A stretch of 61,180 nucleotides of DNA. Source: a virus. Positions 3,294-57,624 of this stretch are shown here, one piece after another. The position numbers were made by a program, and so were the translations under genes. The stretch is taken from positions 1 to 61,180 of IMG/VR virus record IMGVR_UViG_3300023099_000001, one strand, 5' to 3'. The notes beneath the pieces were generated by a model, which had not been told where the DNA came from, did not search any database, and saw only the letters and a list, made by a program, of their open reading frames with translations. The number at the start of each line of letters is the position of its first letter. Position 1 is the first letter of the stretch.

Positions 3294-3519
3294 GAGCCTT
3301 CACAAGATTTTGAAAGAACGGATCGGACATATCCCACACTACAGGGTAGTGTACGTTTCCGCTAGGGTCTTTATGGCACTGGTAAAGTTCGTCATCAACA
3401 GACACAATAAACCACCGCGACTCGTCAACACTACCCTGCCTCTGCTCCCAGATGCTCCATGTCCGAGTTTCTGCGGCCACGGGCGGGTCATCGGCCCGAT
3501 GCTTAGCCATGAAAACCAT
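3280..3519 (-). CDS. hypothetical protein (79 aa)
   Basis: ORF track. Confidence 0.55.
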   Translation of the reverse strand: MVFMAKHRADDPPVAAETRTWSIWEQRQGSVDESRWFIVSVDDELYQCHKDPSGNVHYPVVWDMSDPFFQNLVKALENE

Positions 3520-3820
3520 CGCGCATAATAGGCGTAGCAGTAGGCATTACCTTACCGTTAGCAATTTCTTCGCGCAGCTTAGCTGAAGTCTCGCGGACAC
3601 GAATAGTCTGCTTATCCATCACCCGCACATAGGCAGCCGTAGCCAAATCAGAATGACTAACAGCATCGATAGATAAACCCTGAATAACTCTCATGAATTC
3701 GTCAACAGCCACACGAGCGCTAGTAGCTTCCATGATAGCGCGGGAATGCTTCAACGCTGTGCTCACGCCCAAACGAATCTCACCGTATTGCTTAGCGATT
3801 TTATTTTTTGACTTAAACAT
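3503..3820 (-). CDS. hypothetical protein (105 aa; start moved to ATG 3820)
   Basis: Internal ATG (MFKSKNK...) lies 1 nt after the stop of the upstream gene at 3822. The longer ORF would overlap that gene by 80 nt. Confidence 0.55.
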   Translation of the reverse strand: MFKSKNKIAKQYGEIRLGVSTALKHSRAIMEATSARVAVDEFMRVIQGLSIDAVSHSDLATAAYVRVMDKQTIRVRETSAKLREEIANGKVMPTATPIMRDGFHG

Positions 3821-10756: not shown

Positions 10757-11382
10757 TTCTTGATTAGGTAATTACAAAAACTTGCCCGTAGGATCATACA
10801 TGGGGAGCTTTAGGGACTTTTAGCTCTCTGCCTCCACGTTCCATTCCAGTGAGTCAATTTCATATCTAGAATTTAGTTGTTACCTGACTGCCCTCATTCA
10901 CTACGCCATAGCTACGTGACTTATTGGGAATTTAAGATTGGCTAAATGCCCTCTGCGAGTTTTCTAGGGTTTCAAGTTTCATTTAGCCAATCAGCACGAC
11001 TGACACTTACTCTAGGCAATGTTCGGGCATTCCTGTTTCACTGCCAGCCGCGCAGACTGTCTAACTAATATATTTTCTATGTCGCTACACCAGTCCGGTC
11101 GTTTCTGGAATTACAAGCAATTCACCGGAGTTTCTAAAATCACATATATTCAACCCTATAGGCGGGTAACCTGTCGCTTTTACATGATAGCTCCTGATTA
11201 GGTATTTTTCATTTCTGTGCTACAAGAGAAACACTACGGGGAGTCAAGGTGTCTTGTCTAGTGTTTCTTTATAACAGATTGGTAACGGAAGATAACAGCC
11301 TGCAAACCAGCCTGAGAACTTGATTTCGAAAAATCAACTCTAGGCGCTTTACGTGGGACAGGTACAAAGCTGGGGAGTGTGA
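10757..11382 (-). other. 626-nt noncoding, hairpin-dense region between two leftward gene blocks (candidate structured RNA or regulatory region)
   Basis: No credible ORF on either strand. Perfect 13-bp (10936-10948/10980-10992) and 10-bp (11227-11236/11259-11268) inverted repeats, plus several shorter ones. Confidence 0.5.
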
Positions 11383-11613
11383 TCATTTCGAAATCACATC
11401 CGTGCCCAGCCCGTTACCCTGCACGTCCGCATCCCAAAAGCAATTATCGCTATCTTCAGTGGGGCACGGAGTTTCGGCGGGTATAGAAATAGTGGGCAAT
11501 TGCTGGGGAACAAACTGCATTTCCTGAATCTTGTTACCCACAATTACGATGAGTGCAACTGCAACCAACACAATCATGCAGTCCATAGCTGTTTTCAAAA
11601 ACTTGGGAATCAT
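11383..11613 (-). CDS. small membrane protein (76 aa, one TM helix)
   Basis: MIPKFLKTAMDCMIVLVAVALIVIVGNKI... is a hydrophobic N-terminus. ATGA overlap with the upstream ORF. Confidence 0.6.
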   Translation of the reverse strand: MIPKFLKTAMDCMIVLVAVALIVIVGNKIQEMQFVPQQLPTISIPAETPCPTEDSDNCFWDADVQGNGLGTDVISK

Positions 11614-11735
11614 GCTGGGTTTCCTACTCTCTTAGTGTTGTGTGAAATCTTTTCGAAGCTGGGTAAGTTGTCCATGTCCACGTCAAGGGCGGCAAGGCAC
11701 GACAGGGCACGCTGTAGCTTTCCTGAAATTCTCAT
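11610..11735 (-). CDS. small ORF (41 aa)
   Basis: Hand translation MRISGKLQRALSCLAALDVDMDNLPSFEKISHNTKRVGNPA; ATGA-coupled to 11613. Confidence 0.4.
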   Translation of the reverse strand: MRISGKLQRALSCLAALDVDMDNLPSFEKISHNTKRVGNPA

Positions 11736-11736
11736 T

Positions 11737-11880
11737 TCAGTAATCCCCTAAAAAGTAATCCCCTAAAATAGGAGCTAGGACCAACATAACCGCCGTGAGA
11801 ACACTATCCACAGTGGGATTATCCGCTTCCATAGCCTTATCAATGGCTTCGCCAAGGTCGTATTTAAGCTCTTCCAGCAT
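11737..11880 (-). CDS. small ORF (47 aa) downstream of hammerhead C
   Basis: Hand translation MLEELKYDLGEAIDKAMEADNPTVDSVLTAVMLVLAPILGDYFLGDY; the ATG lies 20 nt after the ribozyme motif. Confidence 0.45.
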   Translation of the reverse strand: MLEELKYDLGEAIDKAMEADNPTVDSVLTAVMLVLAPILGDYFLGDY

Positions 11881-11899
11881 TTTGATAACTCACTCTCTA

Positions 11900-11963
11900 A
11901 GTCTCATCAGTGTGCCTATCTGACACAGACCTAGCCTAATTGAATTTAGGCTAGGTTTCGACT
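11900..11963 (-). ncRNA. hammerhead ribozyme motif C (type II permutation)
   Basis: Minus-strand RNA: A GUC GAAA CCUAGCCUAA-auucaa-UUAGGCUAGG UC UGUGUC-agaua-GGCACA CUGAUGA GAC U. All invariant core nucleotides and a GUC cleavage triplet are present. Confidence 0.75.
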
Positions 11964-11976
11964 AGTTGGATAGAGA

Positions 11977-12816
11977 TTAGATGCTGTACGCTTCCCCACA
12001 GTTATCGCACGTCATCGTGGACTTCTCGTACATGTCACGAGGAATCCGGTAAATCGTGTCACAAGGGCACGAGACAGTGACCGTAGCGCTACCGTAAGCC
12101 TTACGCGGTTTCGGCGTGAACGGAATGTTCAAGTCAATTCCTGTAGTACCGCCGTAAGGGTTAGTGCTGGAAATGCGCCGGTAAATCGTGATCGCTGACA
12201 TAAGATTCTCGATTTTGTCGGCATACAGGGCGCGTGCGCTATCAGTGATACCCGGCGTAACGTGACCGATGTTTTGGTTCACGTTCGTGTTGGGGTCACG
12301 CTCCACAACACAACCGAAAGATGCTGCGAGGTTCGCAAAACGCTTGTTGTGGTAACGCCCTGAACGGGACGTGTCCTGAATGCCTTTAGCGTGCGCGTAA
12401 GCATGCGCAGCTTCATGCAACAGCGTGGAAACAGTTTTGATAACCTGTCCACCGTTTGTGTTCCACTCGCCCACCATAGACAGCGTGGAAAGCATCAACT
12501 CGTGGTGCGCAGCACCTTCGTACCGGTTCGGCGCGAAATGCCCATGAGCCCGTGTGTCGGCCTGCAACACAATGTTGACAGGCGGGGTACCGGGGTGTGT
12601 GTGCTGAATTTCACGCCACAACTCATTGATAGCGTTCAGAATGGGCAGAGTCGGCGTGTCATGGCGCAGAAACACTGCCAGCGCCTTACCGGGCAGCGTG
12701 TCGTGGTCCCGGTCGGCAGGGTAGCTCTTCTCAATGTTGCTAGCCCGCGTCAGGCTAACCACCCCGTGATCGACGGCGGCAACCAACGGGGCGTAAGTGA
12801 CTTTACGTGTTGACAT
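11977..12816 (-). CDS. SprT-like zinc metalloprotease with C-terminal zinc ribbon (279 aa; start at ATG 12816)
   Basis: LLHEAAHAYAHAKGIQDTSRSGRYHNKRFANLA contains an HExxH motif. C-terminal CPCD...CDNCG. The listed upstream start at 12849 lies inside the ribozyme motif. Confidence 0.7.
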   Translation of the reverse strand: MSTRKVTYAPLVAAVDHGVVSLTRASNIEKSYPADRDHDTLPGKALAVFLRHDTPTLPILNAINELWREIQHTHPGTPPVNIVLQADTRAHGHFAPNRYEGAAHHELMLSTLSMVGEWNTNGGQVIKTVSTLLHEAAHAYAHAKGIQDTSRSGRYHNKRFANLAASFGCVVERDPNTNVNQNIGHVTPGITDSARALYADKIENLMSAITIYRRISSTNPYGGTTGIDLNIPFTPKPRKAYGSATVTVSCPCDTIYRIPRDMYEKSTMTCDNCGEAYSI

Positions 12817-12832
12817 TCTATTCTCTCTTTCA

Positions 12833-12887
12833 AGACTCATCAGGTGCACTATCTGTGCACGACACGCTGTGGGAGCGTGTTTCGTCT
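12833..12887 (-). ncRNA. hammerhead ribozyme motif A (type II permutation)
   Basis: Minus-strand RNA: A GAC GAAA CACGCU-cccac-AGCGUG UC GUGCAC-agaua-GUGCAC CUGAUGA GUC U. Confidence 0.75.
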
Positions 12888-12894
12888 AGGGGGG

Positions 12895-13098
12895 TTACTC
12901 CCAGTCTGCTAGTGCTCCTGTTACCTCGAATTGTTCGAACGCTGCGCACAATGCGTCGCTACGGTCCAACCGAGGCCAGTTGCCTACTCGTGATTCGAAT
13001 ACCGAACCGTCGGTGTCAGCAATCGTTAGCACCGTATAACTGGGACGGTCCCCGAATGCCGGACCTTGCTTACCTGTAACAACTGTTATGCGTTCCAT
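12895..13098 (-). CDS. hypothetical protein (67 aa); first ORF of the ribozyme-punctuated operon
   Basis: ORF track; the ATG lies 21 nt after hammerhead B. Confidence 0.55.
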   Translation of the reverse strand: MERITVVTGKQGPAFGDRPSYTVLTIADTDGSVFESRVGNWPRLDRSDALCAAFEQFEVTGALADWE

Positions 13099-13119
13099 TG
13101 CTCTGCCTTTCGTGTAGTG

Positions 13120-13169
13120 GACTCATCAGCACGGGGGTTATCCGTGGACCCGTATACGCGGGTTTCGTC
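13120..13169 (-). ncRNA. hammerhead ribozyme motif B (type II permutation)
   Basis: Minus-strand RNA: GAC GAAA CCCG-cguaua-CGGG UC CACGG-auaaccc-CCGUG CUGAUGA GUC. Confidence 0.7.
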
Positions 13170-14164
13170 GGGTGGCTAGTACTTCGCGGCCCTAGCTAGG
13201 CGTTCCCTGAGACCCTGCCACCGTTTCGACTCCTACTATCCATGCGGCCCGGTGGGGCTCATTGATATCAGTATAGCCGCATATAGGCAGAATTGACCTG
13301 CAAATATCAACGGATTTATAACATTGCAGACCGTGCAAGATTGTGAGTACATAGCCCCCTCCACTAGTGGATATGCGCCACCCTGTCAATACCCCCGTAT
13401 ATACGCGCGCGGGCGAGGAAAACTCAGTCTTTCGAGCAGGGGGGTGTATGTACTGGTGTATGAGTGAGTCAATGGAACAGTACAGAGACCAACACATTGA
13501 TATATGAGTGTCAATCAATAGCTAGGTGCGCTGACATATGAGAGTCAATGAGTCGTTGACATATACATGTAGCTAGAACATATGTACGAGACAGAACAGT
13601 CTGTCGCACTATTAGCACTCGCAGAGCAAGAGTGCCAAAAGGGGGGTTTAGTGGGGTAAAGAGAACCCCGGAATAGAGCGGCTGAAAGGGGCTGATTCGA
13701 TTCTACGGGGCGAACGGGGATGAGTTAGGGGTAGCGGATGGGTAAGGGGGGTCAAGGGCTTAGACGGGCGCACAGGGCCGCACGCTATGAACTAGCTGTA
13801 TGAACACTGATAGGTGTGAGTGTAGAACACATGTACTAAACAGGGTGAGGATGTGTCAAGTTAAGAGTATGTACTGGTGTATGTACTAGCGTGACATATA
13901 AATGTATACATGAAAGGGATTAGAGTTGAATGAACGCTGATAGATAGCTGTGAGCGGGCTATGAGAAGAGCAAGAGAAACAAATGAGAATAAATCATGTT
14001 CAATCGATGAAAGAAGATAATGAGAGAATGTCACGGCTGGGAGAGCGTGGTTGGGGGTGGTGTATGTATTTTTGTATTAAAAATTTCTAGTGTAGTTTCT
14101 CTTTTCCAAAAAATAATCGGAGAAAAAATTGCTATAGGACCCGTTCTAGTTGTAGACTGTCTAC
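13170..14164. promoter_or_regulatory. about 1-kb noncoding divergent control region (repeats, G-tract cluster); candidate promoters, ori or pac
   Basis: Lies between leftward and rightward gene blocks. Only an implausible Cys/His-rich ORF is present. Direct repeats and 11 G-runs. Confidence 0.5.
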
Positions 14165-38385: not shown

Positions 38386-38456
38386 ATCGTGTTGGTGTAA
38401 TGGCAGCACAAGAAACTCCAAATCTCTTGGCGGGAGTTCGATTCTCTCACACTTTG
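38386..38456 (+). tRNA. tRNA-Trp(CCA)-like, acceptor stem defective at pairs 2-71 and 3-70
   Basis: D arm GTGT/GCAC, anticodon loop CTCCAAA, T arm GGGAG-TTCGATT-CTCTC, CCA encoded. Acceptor ATCGTGT/ACACTTT gives only 5 of 7 pairs. Confidence 0.45.
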
Positions 38457-38479
38457 CCAGCTTGAATAACTAAATACTT

Positions 38480-38552
38480 GGGCCTATGACTAGATAGGGA
38501 TGTCCCTGCTTTGCAAGCAGTGTGTATGGGAGTTCGAATCTCCTTAGGTCCA
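38480..38552 (+). tRNA. tRNA-Ala(TGC)
   Basis: Acceptor GGGCCTA/TAGGTCC with G3:U70; anticodon loop TTTGCAA; T loop TTCGAAT. Confidence 0.7.
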
Positions 38553-38557
38553 CGCAA

Positions 38558-38629
38558 CGCGGTGTAGTCTAACGGTAGGACAACAGTTTCATACGCTGTA
38601 CAGTGCGAGTTCGATTCTCGTCACCGCAA
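38558..38629 (+). tRNA. tRNA-Met(CAT) with C1-A72 mismatch (initiator-like acceptor), CCA encoded
   Basis: CGCGGTG/CACCGCA; anticodon loop TTCATAC; T arm GCGAG-TTCGATT-CTCGT; A73-CCA. Confidence 0.7.
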
Positions 38630-38654
38630 CCACTTGACAACTTAATATCAACAA

Positions 38655-38726
38655 CCGATTATACGCAAGAGGTATGCGGCACGCTTTGGGAGCATGAAGT
38701 CGAAGGTTCGAATCCTTCTAATCGGA
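38655..38726 (+). tRNA. tRNA-Pro(TGG)
   Basis: CCGATTA/TAATCGG; loop TTTGGGA (G37); T arm GAAGG-TTCGAAT-CCTTC. Confidence 0.75.
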
Positions 38727-38728
38727 CT

Positions 38729-38801
38729 GCGGCTATGACAGAATGATAATTGTCACTGATTGTGGATCAGTTGTACGTGGGTTTGATCCCCACTAGTCGC
38801 C
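38729..38801 (+). tRNA. tRNA-His(GTG), CCA encoded
   Basis: GCGGCTA/TAGTCGC; C73; anticodon stem ACTGA/TCAGT; loop TTGTGGA. Confidence 0.75.
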
Positions 38802-38896
38802 CCACTTCCCGGTAACGGGCAGCGCAACAATCGGCGCGATAAAAGACATGAGGTTAGCGGCCTCAGGTGAAGTCCTCACTGACGAATGGACAATTT

Positions 38897-38968
38897 GGGA
38901 CTATAGCTCAGAGGAAGAGCATTCGCCTGTCGAGCGAAAGGTCGCGGTATCGTAATCCGTTAGTCTCG
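38897..38968 (+). tRNA. tRNA-Asp(GTC), non-canonical T arm (U53-U61), CCA encoded
   Basis: GGGACTA/TAGTCTC; stem TTCGC/GCGAA; loop CTGTCGA; T arm GCGGT-ATCGTAA-TCCGT. Confidence 0.65.
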
Positions 38969-38972
38969 CCAA

Positions 38973-39045
38973 GTCGCATTAGGATAGCGGTTAATCCACT
39001 TGATTCTCAGTCAAGATACCGAGGGTTCGAATCCCTCATGCGATA
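38973..39045 (+). tRNA. tRNA-Glu(CTC)
   Basis: GTCGCAT/ATGCGAT; stem CTTGA/TCAAG; loop TTCTCAG; T arm GAGGG-TTCGAAT-CCCTC. Confidence 0.7.
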
Positions 39046-39046
39046 C

Positions 39047-39120
39047 GCTCCGTTGGTCTAGCGGTTAGGATGCCGGGCTTTCACCCCGTGCGAACGTCGG
39101 TTCGAATCCGACACGGAGTA
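39047..39120 (+). tRNA. tRNA-Glu(TTC)
   Basis: GCTCCGT/ACGGAGT; loop CTTTCAC; T arm GTCGG-TTCGAAT-CCGAC. Confidence 0.7.
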
Positions 39121-39122
39121 CG

Positions 39123-39150
39123 ATAGCACAGTACACCCTGTGCTATTTTT
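39123..39150 (+). terminator. rho-independent terminator inside the tRNA array
   Basis: ATAGCACAG-tacacc-CTGTGCTAT followed by TTTT. Confidence 0.7.
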
Positions 39151-39165
39151 AGTCAGTGGAGTATA

Positions 39166-39249
39166 ATGGATAACAGTACAGAGAACATCGACGGATTTGC
39201 TTGCCCAATTGATCCTATGGAAGCCTTGCAATGCGAGTCTTGCCAGTGA
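39166..39249 (+). CDS. micro-ORF (27 aa, Cys-containing)
   Basis: GGAG-tata-ATG; hand translation MDNSTENIDGFACPIDPMEALQCESCQ. Confidence 0.3.
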   Translation: MDNSTENIDGFACPIDPMEALQCESCQ

Positions 39250-39255
39250 TATAAT
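39247..39255 (+). promoter_or_regulatory. extended -10 element (TGaTATAAT) 8 nt before tRNA-Tyr
   Basis: The predicted start site would fall at or next to the mature tRNA 5' end. Confidence 0.4.
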
Positions 39256-39263
39256 TAAATAAC

Positions 39264-39345
39264 GGCGCGTTACTCAAGCGGTTAACGAGGTCTGACTGTA
39301 AATCAGATGTGTAATGCTACGGGAGTTCGAATCTCTCACGCGCCA
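39264..39345 (+). tRNA. tRNA-Tyr(GTA), class II
   Basis: GGCGCGT/ACGCGCC; stem TCTGA/TCAGA; loop CTGTAAA; 13-nt variable arm. Confidence 0.8.
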
Positions 39346-39405
39346 CGCAGTAGCTGAAGTGTTGCAACGGGACTAACTGAATAACTCCCTATTGCTGCTG
39401 CACTT

Positions 39406-39478
39406 GCCCCTTTAGCTCAAACGGTAGAGCATTGGTCTGAAACGCCGAGGGTTGTTGGTTCGAATCCAATGGGGGGCA
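39406..39478 (+). tRNA. tRNA-Phe(GAA)
   Basis: GCCCCTT/GGGGGGC; loop CTGAAAC; T arm GTTGG-TTCGAAT-CCAAT. Confidence 0.75.
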
Positions 39479-39483
39479 CGCAT

Positions 39484-39556
39484 GCCTGTGTACCCCAATG
39501 GCAGAGGGACAGCACTTAAAATGCTTTCAGTAAGGGTTCGAGTCCCTTGACAGGTA
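39484..39556 (+). tRNA. class-I-shaped tRNA with anticodon TAA (UUA-Leu codon)
   Basis: GCCTGTG/GACAGGT; loop CTTAAAA; only a 5-nt variable region; T arm AAGGG-TTCGAGT-CCCTT. Confidence 0.55.
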
Positions 39557-39574
39557 CGTTACAATTAAACATAT

Positions 39575-39655
39575 GGCTCATTGGTGGAATGGTATACACG
39601 CTAGTCTTAGGAACTAGTGCCGAAAGGTATAAGAGTTCGAATCTCTTATGGGCTA
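39575..39655 (+). tRNA. tRNA-Leu(TAG), class II
   Basis: GGCTCAT/ATGGGCT; stem CTAGT/ACTAG; loop CTTAGGA; 13-nt variable arm. Confidence 0.75.
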
Positions 39656-39669
39656 CTCGTAGGAAAATA

Positions 39670-39740
39670 AAAGCTATAGTGTAGTGGAAGCGCGCCGGGC
39701 CGTTAACCCGGAAGTGGGAGTTCGATTCTCTCTAGCAAAA
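39670..39740 (+). tRNA. tRNA-Asn(GTT)-like, acceptor pairs 1-3 all A-A, C33
   Basis: AAAGCTA/TAGCAAA; stem CCGGG/CCCGG; loop CCGTTAA; canonical D and T arms. Possibly a pseudogene. Confidence 0.4.
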
Positions 39741-39817
39741 AGTGGTGTATACTGCACACGTAAGCGCTCCCTGTTTGGTACGGGGGAAGCGGGACGAGGA
39801 CTACCGCATAGAAACGG

Positions 39818-39846
39818 TAGACACTACGATTCATTTAGTGTATAAT
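39818..39846 (+). promoter_or_regulatory. promoter (TAGACA-17 nt-TGTATAAT; TAGTGTATAAT copy)
   Basis: -35 at 39818-39823, 17-nt spacer, extended -10 at 39839-39846, 6 nt before ATG 39853. Confidence 0.55.
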
Positions 39847-39852
39847 AGGAGA

Positions 39853-39921
39853 ATGATGATTAAGCAGCAAACGAAATGCTCGGGCATAGGTAATACTGTC
39901 CGCGCCCTGTTTGCTGCCTAA
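39853..39921 (+). CDS. micro-ORF (22 aa), possibly leaderless
   Basis: MMIKQQTKCSGIGNTVRALFAA; followed by a terminator. Confidence 0.3.
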   Translation: MMIKQQTKCSGIGNTVRALFAA

Positions 39922-39942
39922 AAGTTCTTAGAACTACTTGAC

Positions 39943-39973
39943 AGCCTATAGGGAAACCTGTAGGCTATTTTTA
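39943..39973 (+). terminator. rho-independent terminator
   Basis: AGCCTATAGG-gaaa-CCTGTAGGCT followed by ATTTTTAT. Confidence 0.7.
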
Positions 39974-39991
39974 TAACTACACACAGCAAAT

Positions 39992-40073
39992 GGAGACACG
40001 CATGGGAGAGCTTATGCGTCTTGAAAACGTTGATGACCGCAAGGTTGTGGGGGTTCGAGTCCCTCTGTCTCCG
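39992..40073 (+). tRNA. tRNA-Ser(TGA), class II, atypical D arm
   Basis: GGAGACA/TGTCTCC; loop CTTGAAA; variable arm GACC-gcaa-GGTT; T arm GGGGG-TTCGAGT-CCCTC. Confidence 0.6.
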
Positions 40074-40123
40074 CAATAGGTTAGGAAGCCCTGAGTTCCA
40101 GAACAGCACCGACACCTAGATTT

Positions 40124-40206
40124 GGAATCATGGCAGAGCGGTAATGCAGCACCCTGCTAAGGTGTACAGCCTCACGGTTGCGAAGGTTCGATTCCTTCTG
40201 GTTCCG
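40124..40206 (+). tRNA. tRNA-Ser(GCT), class II
   Basis: GGAATCA/TGGTTCC; stem GCACC/GGTGT; loop CTGCTAA; long variable arm. Confidence 0.75.
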
Positions 40207-40229
40207 CTTGACAACTAAATAATAACTAA

Positions 40230-40301
40230 CCCCCTGTAGCTCAGAGGCAGAGCACCGGACTTTTAATCCGAGGGCCGAGATTTCAAAATTCTCTGGGGGG
40301 A
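40230..40301 (+). tRNA. tRNA-Lys(TTT), non-canonical T arm (U53-U61)
   Basis: CCCCCTG/TGGGGGG; loop CTTTTAA; T arm GAGAT-TTCAAAA-TTCTC. Confidence 0.6.
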
Positions 40302-40395
40302 CAAACTCGACACACGGAGCGCTCTGTGCTAGAGTTAGGTACGTTGGACCGGACTGGTGCAATTCAAGCTAAGGTTTCCGCAACGTACCGATCTT

Positions 40396-40466
40396 GCCTT
40401 ATTGATGTAGAAGTAACATACTAGTCTTCCAAACTAGGTTCGCGGTGGCAGAATCCGCATAAGGCT
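40396..40466 (+). tRNA. tRNA-Gly(TCC), non-canonical T arm
   Basis: GCCTTAT/ATAAGGC; stem CTAGT/ACTAG; loop CTTCCAA; T arm GCGGT-GGCAGAA-TCCGC. Confidence 0.6.
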
Positions 40467-40485
40467 CTTGATAACTAAATAACAT

Positions 40486-40558
40486 GCCGAATTAGCTCAT
40501 CAGGTAGAGCAGGTATCTTGTAAATATCAGGTGGTCAGTTCGAGTCTGACATTCGGCC
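40486..40558 (+). tRNA. tRNA-Thr(TGT)
   Basis: GCCGAAT/ATTCGGC; loop CTTGTAA; T arm GTCAG-TTCGAGT-CTGAC. Confidence 0.8.
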
Positions 40559-40560
40559 CC

Positions 40561-40628
40561 GGTTCACGTTCTGGGAACAAGCATCCTTTACACGGAAGCT
40601 CCGCAGAGTCCGATTCTCTGGTGAACTA
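40561..40628 (+). tRNA. tRNA-Val(TAC), short D arm
   Basis: GGTTCAC/GTGAACT; loop TTTACAC; T arm CAGAG-TCCGATT-CTCTG. Confidence 0.55.
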
Positions 40629-40778
40629 CGCAATACGTCTTAGCATGGTGTAAGCCTGAAGCTAAGAACTATACAGGAACTTACATTCCGTGGTATAGTC
40701 GAGTCAAAGGATACTCGTAATCATCCGGCGCTGATAGTTTATGGTACAACGCATGAAGCATAATGAACCGTACAACAT

Positions 40779-40850
40779 TGGAGTGTGGCGCAGCGGCAGC
40801 GCAGGAAACTGTTAATTTCTTGGTCGTAGGTTCGAATCCTACCATTCCAG
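40779..40850 (+). tRNA. tRNA-Asn(GTT)
   Basis: TGGAGTG/CATTCCA; D arm GCGC/GCGC; loop CTGTTAA; T arm GTAGG-TTCGAAT-CCTAC. Confidence 0.75.
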
Positions 40851-40870
40851 CTTTACAATTAAATATCAAT

Positions 40871-40942
40871 GCCTTATTAGCTCAGCGGAAGAGCTTGCGC
40901 CTACGGAGCGTAGAGTCGGGAGTTCGAATCTCTCATAGGGCA
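40871..40942 (+). tRNA. tRNA-Arg(ACG)
   Basis: GCCTTAT/ATAGGGC; loop CTACGGA; T arm GGGAG-TTCGAAT-CTCTC. Confidence 0.8.
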
Positions 40943-41023
40943 CGAAAGGCTGTGTGGTAGGTATCTCAGACGCTCCCGATAACGGAGACAGTAGATCACA
41001 GTGAAGAAACACCCTACCGACAA

Positions 41024-41095
41024 TGCCCGCTGGTGTAACCGGCAACACGACTGGCTCTGAATCAGTTATTTCTAGTTCGAATCTAGGGTGGGCAG
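41024..41095 (+). tRNA. tRNA-Gln(CTG)
   Basis: TGCCCGC/GTGGGCA (U1-A72); loop CTCTGAA; T arm TCTAG-TTCGAAT-CTAGG. Confidence 0.75.
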
Positions 41096-41105
41096 CGCTT
41101 GACAT

Positions 41106-41177
41106 ACCCCGTTGGTGTAGCGGCAGCACGCGAGCCTTTGGAACTCGTAGGGCGTGGTTCGAATCCACGGTGGGGTG
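41106..41177 (+). tRNA. tRNA-Gln(TTG)
   Basis: ACCCCGT/GTGGGGT; loop CTTTGGA (31-39 C-A mismatch); T arm CGTGG-TTCGAAT-CCACG. Confidence 0.65.
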
Positions 41178-41197
41178 CTCTGATAATTTAATAACAC

Positions 41198-41269
41198 GCC
41201 CCTCTAACTCAGAGGCAGAGTATTCCCCTCTTAAGGGAAGAGTCGAGATTTCGAAATTCTCGGGGGGCA
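41198..41269 (+). tRNA. tRNA-Lys(CTT), non-canonical T arm (U53-U61)
   Basis: GCCCCTC/GGGGGGC; stem TTCCC/GGGAA; loop CTCTTAA; T arm GAGAT-TTCGAAA-TTCTC. Confidence 0.65.
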
Positions 41270-41270
41270 C

Positions 41271-41344
41271 TGTCCTAGGGCCGAACGGTTTGACGGCATG
41301 AAGCTTATAACTTCACGGACAGGGTTCAATTCCCTGTGGGACTA
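41271..41344 (+). tRNA. tRNA-Ile(TAT)
   Basis: TGTCCTA/TGGGACT (1-72 U-U); D stem GCCG/CGGC; stem TGAAG/CTTCA; loop CTTATAA. Confidence 0.55.
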
Positions 41345-41345
41345 C

Positions 41346-41417
41346 GGTAGTGTGCGTGAGTGGCTAGCGCGCTGATTGCAAACCAGTTGTACGCCTGTTC
41401 GAATCAGGTCACTACCT
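41346..41417 (+). tRNA. tRNA-Cys(GCA)
   Basis: GGTAGTG/CACTACC; U73; loop TTGCAAA; T arm GCCTG-TTCGAAT-CAGGT. Confidence 0.75.
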
Positions 41418-41436
41418 CTTGATAATTTAATAGCAA

Positions 41437-41508
41437 GCCTCTATAGCTCAATGGAAGAGCAACGGTTTTCTAGGCCATAGGTTGCGGGTTCGAATCCTGC
41501 TAGGGGTA
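41437..41508 (+). tRNA. tRNA-Arg(TCT)
   Basis: GCCTCTA/TAGGGGT; loop TTTCTAG; T arm GCGGG-TTCGAAT-CCTGC. Confidence 0.7.
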
Positions 41509-41566
41509 CTGGGTGCTACCTATGGCGGTAGTTAAATGTCGGCATCGTCCCTACAGCCCTTATTAA

Positions 41567-41640
41567 AGCCGTTTAGCTCAGTAGGTTAGAGCGCTGTGCT
41601 GATAACACAGAGGTCCGCAGTTCAAATCTGCGAATGGCTA
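41567..41640 (+). tRNA. tRNA-Ile(GAT)
   Basis: AGCCGTT/AATGGCT; stem CTGTG/CACAG; loop CTGATAA; T arm CGCAG-TTCAAAT-CTGCG. Confidence 0.8.
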
Positions 41641-50110: not shown

Positions 50111-50184
50111 TCTCTCACCTGAGATTCGAACTCAGATCGCACACCGTTTGAAGGTGCCGCCTCTACCATTTGGGCTAGCGAGAG
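50111..50184 (-). tRNA. class-I-shaped tRNA with anticodon CAA (UUG-Leu codon), isolated on the minus strand
   Basis: Reverse complement: CTCTCGC TA GCCC-AAATGGTA-GAGGC GCACC-TTCAAAC-GGTGT GCGAT CTGAG-TTCGAAT-CTCAG GTGAGAG A. Confidence 0.6.
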
Positions 50185-57559: not shown

Positions 57560-57624
57560 GTGCGCGGACAGGAATCGAACCTGTGTTTGGGCTTACGCCC
57601 TGTCTACCACTGAACTACCGCGCG
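57560..57624 (-). ncRNA. anticodon-less tRNA-like RNA (initiator-tRNA-like acceptor/T arm; GNRA tetraloop in place of the anticodon loop)
   Basis: Reverse complement: CGCGCGG TA GTTC-AGTGGTA-GAC A GGGC-GTAA-GCCC AAAC ACAGG-TTCGATT-CCTGT CCGCGCA C. Confidence 0.6.

Follow-up and report, generated by a model that had tools for sequence, protein, structure and literature searches.

Natural type II hammerhead ribozymes were discovered by Perreault et al. in 2011, in whose survey multiple hammerheads were often found to flank single genes or short gene blocks in prophages (PMC3088659). The triplets from C. scindens, A. caulinodans, and A. tumefaciens cleave in vitro, that of A. tumefaciens cleaves also in vivo in E. 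coli, and it was proposed that long phage transcripts are processed in this way to operon- or gene-length mRNAs (PMC3088659). Type II hammerheads near phage-like genes of D. vulgaris are active in vivo (PMC8782182), and a 2019 review repeats the idea of phage-transcript processing with its purpose still undefined, the role of the self-cleaving ribozymes of bacteria and phages being still open (PMC6765202). The stretch of DNA analysed here, a virus record of 61,180 nucleotides (nt) from IMG/VR (IMGVR_UViG_3300023099_000001, positions 1 to 61,180; hereafter the window), adds a compact example, in which three type II hammerhead motifs named (a), (b), and (c) bracket two genes of a leftward operon, a small open reading frame (ORF1) and a SprT-like gene (ORF2). 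The idea that such elements act at the level of the operon restates a published, still unproven hypothesis (PMC3088659), and the window is a new instance of it, not a new phenomenon.

The elements of the window share with the curated Rfam family of type II hammerheads (RF02276) the same catalytic core, the GUC triplet, and a location in phage DNA, but (a) and (b) are without the consensus pseudoknot between loop I and the 3' tail, while (b) and (c) carry a stem I of 6 base pairs (bp), an AGAUA pentaloop, and a U.U in stem II. Only ~40% of hammerheads use a pseudoknot (PMC3088659). The prophage triplets (A. tumefaciens around ardA, C. scindens, A. caulinodans) likewise consist of three sense ribozymes in ~1-2 kb that bracket genes of a phage operon; here, however, the genes are a 67-aa ORF and a SprT-like gene, and the carrier is an uncultured 61-kb phage, not a prophage of a cultured bacterium. 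ORF1 and ORF2 are each bracketed by hammerheads of the same orientation, and similar gene-flanking clusters occur in three other phage loci (L023, L030, and L044).

Three further systems offer parallels of position or mechanism. RiboJ, in which the hammerhead of sTRSV and a hairpin are placed between promoter and ribosome-binding site (RBS), leaves upon self-cleavage a 5'-OH and a terminal hairpin before the RBS, and hence a standard 5' untranslated region (UTR); mRNA rises ~2-fold and protein 2-10-fold (PMC6206723). It is engineered, however, from a plant satellite RNA hammerhead of other topology with an added 23-nt hairpin, so that the analogy is one of mechanism and not of family membership. 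The HHphage ribozyme of haloviruses HF1/HF2 lies 13 nt upstream of the helicase start codon (PMC3088659) and parallels (a) in preceding the first gene of a polycistronic early transcript, whose mapped 5' end falls at most 3 nt from the cleavage site; it differs in belonging to an archaeal virus, in its variant core that needs high Mg2+, and in being present as a single copy. Finally, hammerheads in the 5' UTR of fungal and plant RNA viruses, which are needed for translation initiation, also stand upstream of a viral ORF and couple cleavage to translation (bioRxiv 10.1101/2024.05.16.594327), but they are type I ribozymes of RNA genomes acting in a eukaryotic, cap-independent context.

Results and discussion

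Anatomy of the three hammerheads

We consider, with a probability of roughly 0.7, that the three elements are genuine type II hammerheads transcribed within the leftward operon and that their cleavage processes its transcript. They are taken as functional ribozymes because of the covariation observed at the level of the family and because hammerheads occur at syntenic sites in related phages. The initial annotation had placed a hammerhead motif before the start codons at 13098, 12816, and 11880, and both the sequence and a descriptor scan locate all three at these sites (Table 1). Each of them follows the order of the type II permutation: 5' strand of stem II, GAAA, a hairpin, UC, a second hairpin, CUGAUGA, and 3' strand of stem II. 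The core (CUGAUGA, GAA, the A15.1-U16.1 pair, and C17) is intact and without deviation in 3/3 elements, all 11 core nucleotides being kept, and the core and the GUC cleavage triplet are the same as in known type II hammerheads. The pairs that flank the core are intact as well, N10.1-N11.1 being G-C in 3/3 and N1.1-N2.1 being C-G in (a), G-C in (b), and U-A in (c).

All three elements lie within 1.27 kb, on the coding strand and in sense orientation. Element (a) precedes the first cistron and thus occupies a 5' leader position, not one between two genes, and the 78-nt (ORF1/ORF2) and 96-nt (ORF2/ORF3) intergenic spaces are almost wholly taken up by (b) and (c). The former begins 7 nt past the ORF1 stop codon and ends 16 nt ahead of the ATG; the latter begins 13 nt past the ORF2 stop codon and ends 19 nt ahead of the ATG. 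The distance to the ATG, first reported as 17-21 nt, amounts to 21 nt for (a), 17 nt for (b), and 20 nt for (c) when stem II is counted as 3 bp, and to 21, 16, and 19 nt when the full stem II is taken. Between the elements and the ATGs stand purine-rich stretches resembling a Shine-Dalgarno (SD) sequence (GAAAGGCAGAG, GAAAGAGAGAA, and AGAGAGUGAG). Judging from the uniform orientation and tight packing of the genes, the whole stretch is probably co-transcribed.

Table 1. Position and composition of the hammerhead elements, the genes of the leftward operon, and the conserved upstream block in the window.
Feature	Position	Strand	Description
Hammerhead (a), type II	13120..13169	minus	Complete core; 5' leader of ORF1
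(a), parts		minus	Stem II 5' strand GAC 13169-13167; G12-A14 13166-13164; stem III 13163-13148; C17 13147; stem I 13146-13130; CUGAUGA 13129-13123; stem II 3' strand GUC 13122-13120; ATG 13098
(a), helices		minus	Stem III 5 bp; stem I 5 bp, loop AUAACCC; stem II 3 bp (GAC/GUC)
(a), predicted cleavage	C13147/C13146	minus	
Hammerhead (b), type II, AGAUA sub-class	12831..12889	minus	ORF1/ORF2 intergenic space
(b), parts		minus	Stem II 5' strand AGAC 12887-12884; stem III 12880-12862; C17 12861; stem I 12860-12844; CUGAUGA 12843-12837; GUCU 12836-12833; ATG 12816
(b), helices		minus	Stem III 7 bp; stem I 6 bp; stem II UAGAC/GUCUU (4 bp + U.U)
(b), predicted cleavage	C12861/G12860	minus	
Hammerhead (c), type II, AGAUA sub-class	11898..11965	minus	ORF2/ORF3 intergenic space
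(c), parts		minus	Stem II 5' strand AGUC 11963-11960; stem III 11956-11929; C17 11928; stem I 11927-11911; CUGAUGA 11910-11904; GACU 11903-11900; ATG 11880
(c), helices		minus	Stem III 11 bp; stem I 6 bp; stem II UAGUC/GACUU (4 bp)
(c), predicted cleavage	C11928/U11927	minus	
ORF1	12895..13098	minus	67 aa; real gene, with homologues elsewhere (other contigs, 58% and 54% identity)
ORF2	11977..12816	minus	279 aa; SprT-like zinc metalloprotease-type protein, HEAAH motif
ORF3, ORF4, ORF5, ORF6	11258..11880	minus	47, 41, 76, and 42 aa; tightly packed or overlapping
Conserved block, probably non-coding	13171..13263	minus	Directly upstream of (a); ~100 nt, 79% identity to 3505-3600 of related-phage locus L008

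Scans, covariance model, and predicted folds

A descriptor that demands CUGANGA, GAAA, an A15.1-U16.1 pair, a non-G at position 17, and all three helices returned from the window the three sites and one weak match (4/4/2 bp, inside a 738-aa ORF); in 100 dinucleotide-preserving shuffles the same descriptor found a mean of 0.06 motifs per window. We also built a covariance model, R1, from 20 members of the AGAUA sub-class (see below) found on other contigs, with no window sequence included. Run over the whole window with filters off, R1 recovered (c) at 58.7 bits (E~1e-15), (b) at 54.0 bits (E~3e-14), and (a) at 26.9 bits (E~8e-6), and yielded no fourth copy, the next-best match in the 61 kb having 11.7 bits (E=0.41). 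No further hammerhead appeared in the window with the descriptor or a permissive Rfam scan, and the earlier statement that the genome holds no copies elsewhere is upheld by all three approaches; Rfam at gathering thresholds returned only tRNAs over the whole window. A fourth hammerhead was considered in GUCGAAAC, upstream of (a), and discarded: it has no CUGANGA partner and no stem III, the related locus L008 has GUCGUAAAU, and R1 is silent there.

In the minimum-energy prediction, (b) adopts the full three-way junction (z=-2.97), and (c) forms stems III and I (z=-3.8). Fast cleavage at physiological Mg2+ needs a tertiary contact of stem I with stem II, commonly a loop I/3' tail pseudoknot of 4 bp or more. 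Such a pseudoknot is absent in (b), and one of 4-5 bp (GAUAG/UUAUC) is possible in (c), as read from the sequence. The 3-bp stem II of (a), CGAC/GUC, is common to a diverse set of phage hammerheads, some of which have the classic loop I/3' tail pseudoknot (UUGGCAU/UGCCA) and others, like (a), none visible; the covariation that supports (a) comes from this diverse set only. On the 3' side of (c), at 11878-11910 (-), UGAUGAGACUUAGAGAGUGAGUUAUCA can fold into a hairpin that takes in some of the core (UGAUGA and the 3' strand of stem II).

A sub-class of hammerheads with an AGAUA loop

Elements (b) and (c) belong to a sub-class that we collected from IMG/VR with a pattern made of the core, a 6+5+6 frame for stem I, and the AGAUA loop, complementarity not being required. 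The pattern matched 25 stretches, which come down, once duplicates are removed, to 22 distinct sequences, namely (b), (c), and 20 from other contigs. The 6-bp stem I is perfectly paired in all 22, stem III is paired in nearly all, and most have a conserved stem II, UAGNC/GNCUU, that is four pairs and then a U.U. Covariation was scored on a descriptor-based structural alignment of equal length comprising these 22 members; an alignment of six hammerheads made with MAFFT had been discarded for misaligning the variable helices. Standard pairing is found in 98.2% of cells, versus 64.7% in shuffles and 24-39% with slid partners; 101 changes are double-sided, versus 26.9 expected, and 11/15 pairs change on both sides. 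In stem I the pairing reaches 100% and 6/6 pairs covary. The resulting covariation score, which applies to (b) and (c), is 0.846 versus 0.177 in shuffles.

The same pattern matched 16 stretches in bacterial and archaeal genomes (596 Gb), none with paired helices; since these are unpaired, it is the viral sequences themselves, and not the pattern used to find them, that account for the pairing in the viral set. No true member of the sub-class was thus present in this collection of one genome for each of 185,579 bacterial and archaeal species, and the candidate culturable hosts were dropped, all 16 matches being unpaired chance occurrences. The AGAUA sub-class, of which at least 20 distinct viral contigs carry a member, may be restricted to phages seldom present as prophages. 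A stem II of the form UAGNC/GNCUU always comes with a 6-bp stem I and an A-rich pentaloop, which is AGAUA, AAACA, AAGUA, or AUAUA (for instance at L025 283, L030 9736, and L037 3419, and in (b) and (c)), and this association suggests a specific contact between loop and stem II, unlike the usual pseudoknot. In L018 and L032 the AGAUA loop is kept, but a downstream UAUCU could form a pseudoknot instead.

Related phages and the general layout of phage hammerheads

The window comes from an uncultured tailed phage, whose terminase shares 42% identity with the terminase of Arthrobacter phages. No blastn match for the region was obtained among 50,697 GenBank phages, nor did a search of IMG/VR with the back-translated SprT-like protein give any; relatives were reached through the protein database. 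The initial annotation had suggested looking for syntenic hammerheads in related phages, and these are present before the SprT-like gene in 4/8 sampled lineages: a type II hammerhead stands directly upstream of that gene in L006/L007, L008, and L015, with unrelated helix sequences, the one in L006 scoring 39.8 bits with RF02276, above the gathering threshold of 37. None was found at this site in L001, L009, L011, and L014, and permissive scans of the window and seven related loci revealed no twister, pistol, hatchet, or other ribozyme at the syntenic sites. The hammerheads before ORF1 and ORF3 are unique to the window phage, the loci of the ORF1 homologues being without one. Right after the SprT-like stop codon, a strong, GC-rich hairpin that often contains CTAG and has no U-tract occurs in L001, L006, L008, L009, L011, L014, and L015, followed in L009 and L014 by a second conserved hairpin, CACUGAG...GCUCA; in the window, this position is held by the 11-bp stem III of (c). 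CTAG-rich hairpins were also considered as a genome-wide signal, which was rejected, CTAG being not enriched (193 observed versus 220 expected).

The presence of plain hairpins at the same positions in relatives raises the question of whether a hairpin alone may suffice, the motifs of the window being then inactive relics, or plain hairpins (3' stabilisers, RNase III sites, or terminators) around a hammerhead-like core that does not cleave. The half of the lineages without hammerheads and the Rfam scores under threshold speak in the same sense. We hold this to be very improbable: the 11 core nucleotides, the A15.1-U16.1 pair, and C17 are intact in 3/3 copies, the chance expectation and the R1 E-values (1e-15 to 8e-6) given above are against it, the sub-class shows a strong structure-preserving covariation, and no U-tracts follow the hairpins.

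To place the spacing of the window in a wider frame, we examined 52 distinct type II hammerheads retrieved by the generic descriptor in the fetched loci, some of them outside any search pattern. An SD and the start of an ORF of at least 35 aa lie within 80 nt downstream in 45/52, and at 5-30 nt downstream in 39/52 (75%; median 19 nt), compared with 8.6% of random positions; many of the 52 begin at most 13 nt past an upstream stop codon. The succession of stop codon, hammerhead, SD, and ATG is the general layout among these 52 phage elements. The spacing of 17-21 nt is accordingly the norm of the family and not special to this operon; it corresponds approximately to the room needed for an SD and a spacer in a compact intergenic region. 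Clusters recur in the set, with five type II hammerheads in 2.4 kb in L044 (180-2540, -), each 13-19 nt before SD and ATG where scorable, three nearly identical ones in 760 bp in L023 (205-964, -) plus one more on that contig, and three in L030 (9008-10274, -). The layout rule, the sub-class seen only in viruses, and the alternation of hammerhead or hairpin among relatives together point towards, but do not establish, a function of the RiboJ kind, the shaping of mRNA ends; the spacing statistics, the phage-restricted AGAUA/U.U sub-class, and this alternation among related phages may be by-products of some value.

Predicted processing of the operon transcript

The best reading, drawn by analogy, is that (a), (b), and (c) would serve as natural ribozyme insulators that make neighbouring cistrons independent of one another in stability and translation. 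Cleavage is predicted on the strength of the motif and of assays published for comparable clusters. Each ribozyme would fold on leaving the polymerase and cut after C17 (Table 1), and the two halves would then separate because only a stem II of 3-4 bp holds them together. The predicted products are a detached leader, a 286-nt ORF1 RNA (13146-12861), a 933-nt SprT-like RNA (12860-11928), and a polycistronic RNA from ORF3 onward; no non-stop mRNA would arise, because every cut lies 3' of the preceding stop codon. The initial annotation had foreseen a processing into monocistronic units, which fits the ORF1 and SprT-like products, but the product after (c) is polycistronic (ORF3-ORF6) and (a) would only trim a leader.

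The downstream products would start with a 5'-OH right at the stem I hairpin and share a uniform 5' UTR of 44-48 nt, made of the hairpin, CUGAUGA, the 3' strand of stem II, and the SD, while the upstream products would end with the stem III hairpin and UC carrying a 2',3'-cyclic phosphate. In the predicted folds of the products, stem I indeed forms a hairpin at the very start of the RNA and stem III one at its 3' end, and the ends described in the initial annotation (cyclic phosphate on stem III, 5'-OH at the stem I hairpin) fit the predicted sites and folds. In bacterial mRNA decay, 5'-end-dependent attack by RNase E or RNase J is hindered when the RNA starts with a hairpin that has no monophosphate; at the other end, a hairpin bearing a cyclic phosphate hinders 3' exonucleases and polyadenylation. 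From this protection of the ends it would follow that the cistrons are independent in stability and translation, each with a 5' UTR free of its context.

Several observations weigh against such processing. No sigma-70-like promoter was found on the minus strand upstream of (a), and no such promoter or terminator on that strand between the elements. With RF02276 (clan CL00010; gathering threshold 37 bits), a model built around the pseudoknot sub-type, (b) reaches 22.8 bits and (a) 18.6 bits and (c) has no match, so that all three stay under the gathering threshold. Element (a) is the weakest and least secure of the three: its fold is not better than those of shuffles (z=-0.39), no pseudoknot or other tertiary partner was recognised in it, its stem II counts only 3 bp, and it may be slow at physiological Mg2+. 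For (c), the predictions contain the competing 3' hairpin, with the SD GAGAG exposed in the loop, in the uncut as well as in the cut RNA; this hairpin could interfere with folding of the ribozyme, or offer the RBS in the manner of the extra hairpin of RiboJ. The hammerheads are moreover dispensable for these genes, the same sites carrying no hammerhead in half of the related phages. Lastly, in hosts with RNase J a 5'-OH could destabilise the RNA, as is the case for glmS.

The weakness of (a), with its minimal stem II and no visible tertiary contact, and the alternative hairpin of (c), which engages UGAUGA and the 3' strand of stem II, would suit conditional switches, in which cleavage is slow or gated and the ratio of polycistronic to processed RNA shifts during infection. 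The gate might be Mg2+, temperature, a protein, the competing hairpin in (c), or a ribosome terminating 7-13 nt upstream; stop codons lie 0-13 nt upstream of many hammerheads, and a terminating ribosome would there cover the 5' strand of stem II. Regulated cleavage of phage hammerheads was indeed raised by Perreault et al., yet the prophage clusters that they tested cleaved efficiently during transcription (PMC3088659). Since in addition (b) folds cleanly to the active junction, the AGAUA sub-class keeps the features typical of fast natural hammerheads, and no ligand-binding or extra domain is present, we regard such switches as unlikely.

The ends predicted for a simple processing also bring re-ligation to mind. 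A 5'-OH and a 2',3'-cyclic phosphate are the end chemistry used by RtcB and by hammerhead ligation, and the ends of the 286-nt and 933-nt RNAs might be rejoined into circular or spliced phage RNAs, either by a hybrid hammerhead made of two half-ribozymes or by a host ligase of the RtcB type. The 3' strand of stem II in (a), GUC, complements the 5' strand GAC of (b), so the ORF1 fragment could rebuild a hybrid hammerhead, and the neighbouring hammerheads of L023 have identical stem II strands. A complementarity of three bp is trivial, however, a hybrid of (b) and (c) would have a U.U mismatch at the second pair of stem II, and ORF1 has a normal stop codon, so that a circle brings no obvious coding benefit. 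For the prophage clusters, Perreault et al. searched for spliced or circular RNAs, without success (PMC3088659). Such circles would be exonuclease-proof phage mRNAs, a counterpart in bacterial viruses of the retrozyme circles of eukaryotes, but we find their formation here scarcely credible. A milder version of this remote reading has the cut itself turning on translation of the next cistron, by analogy with what is reported for certain RNA viruses of eukaryotes.

Neighbouring genes, upstream region, and other features of the window

ORF1 has no Pfam or PHROG match. The SprT-like protein matches phrog_6361 (9e-17) and, under the cut-off, Pfam PF10263 (20.4 bits); it has 209 homologues, the closest of which, at 50-61% identity, are encoded in syntenic phage loci next to a divergent junction. 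The SprT-like gene is 3-9 percentage points GC-richer than nearby phage DNA in every lineage examined (window, L001-L015). A horizontally acquired, GC-rich cassette bounded by the ribozymes (54% GC versus ~46% for the genome) was therefore rejected, every relative showing this excess, which makes it a trait of the gene itself. Further downstream, no ribozyme separates ORF3, ORF4, ORF5, and ORF6; ORF5 matches phrog_19904 (2e-9), the three others have no detectable homologues in Pfam or PHROG, and homologues of ORF3-ORF6 were not found in the related loci. The 3' end of ORF3 (11740-11768, -) contains a tandem duplication of TTTTAGGGGATTAC, giving a repeated peptide that ends in LGDYFLGDY, and this duplication overlaps a terminator-like hairpin with a T-run (11774-11760).

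A doubtful ORF of 108 aa stops before the similarity to L008 does, and the alignment contains a 1-nt indel, so that the conserved block upstream of (a) is probably non-coding. One long-range helix within the block seems to covary (CCACC/GGUGG versus CCCC/GGGG). Rfam gave no match for the block and no further occurrence of it was found; three exact 17-mer matches of this leader in IMG/VR were discarded as chance occurrences with no flanking similarity. A cut at (a) would sever the block from the ORF1 mRNA. The divergent junction to which it belongs (13171-14160) offers ~1 kb without a convincing gene, with a strong strand bias (C-rich minus strand, GC skew of up to 0.45), four copies of GGTGTATGTACTGGTGT, and several TTGAC...CAT units. 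A gene-free gap of 0.3-1 kb is found at the corresponding place in all related loci, and this gap may be a regulatory, origin, or packaging region.

Elsewhere in the window, isolated tRNA genes are found at 50111-50184 (-) and 57560-57624 (-), and ~26 tRNA genes are gathered in 3.3 kb at 38386-41640 (+), with a weak tRNA-Sec-like match at 39992-40072, a number that is unusually high for a 61-kb phage.

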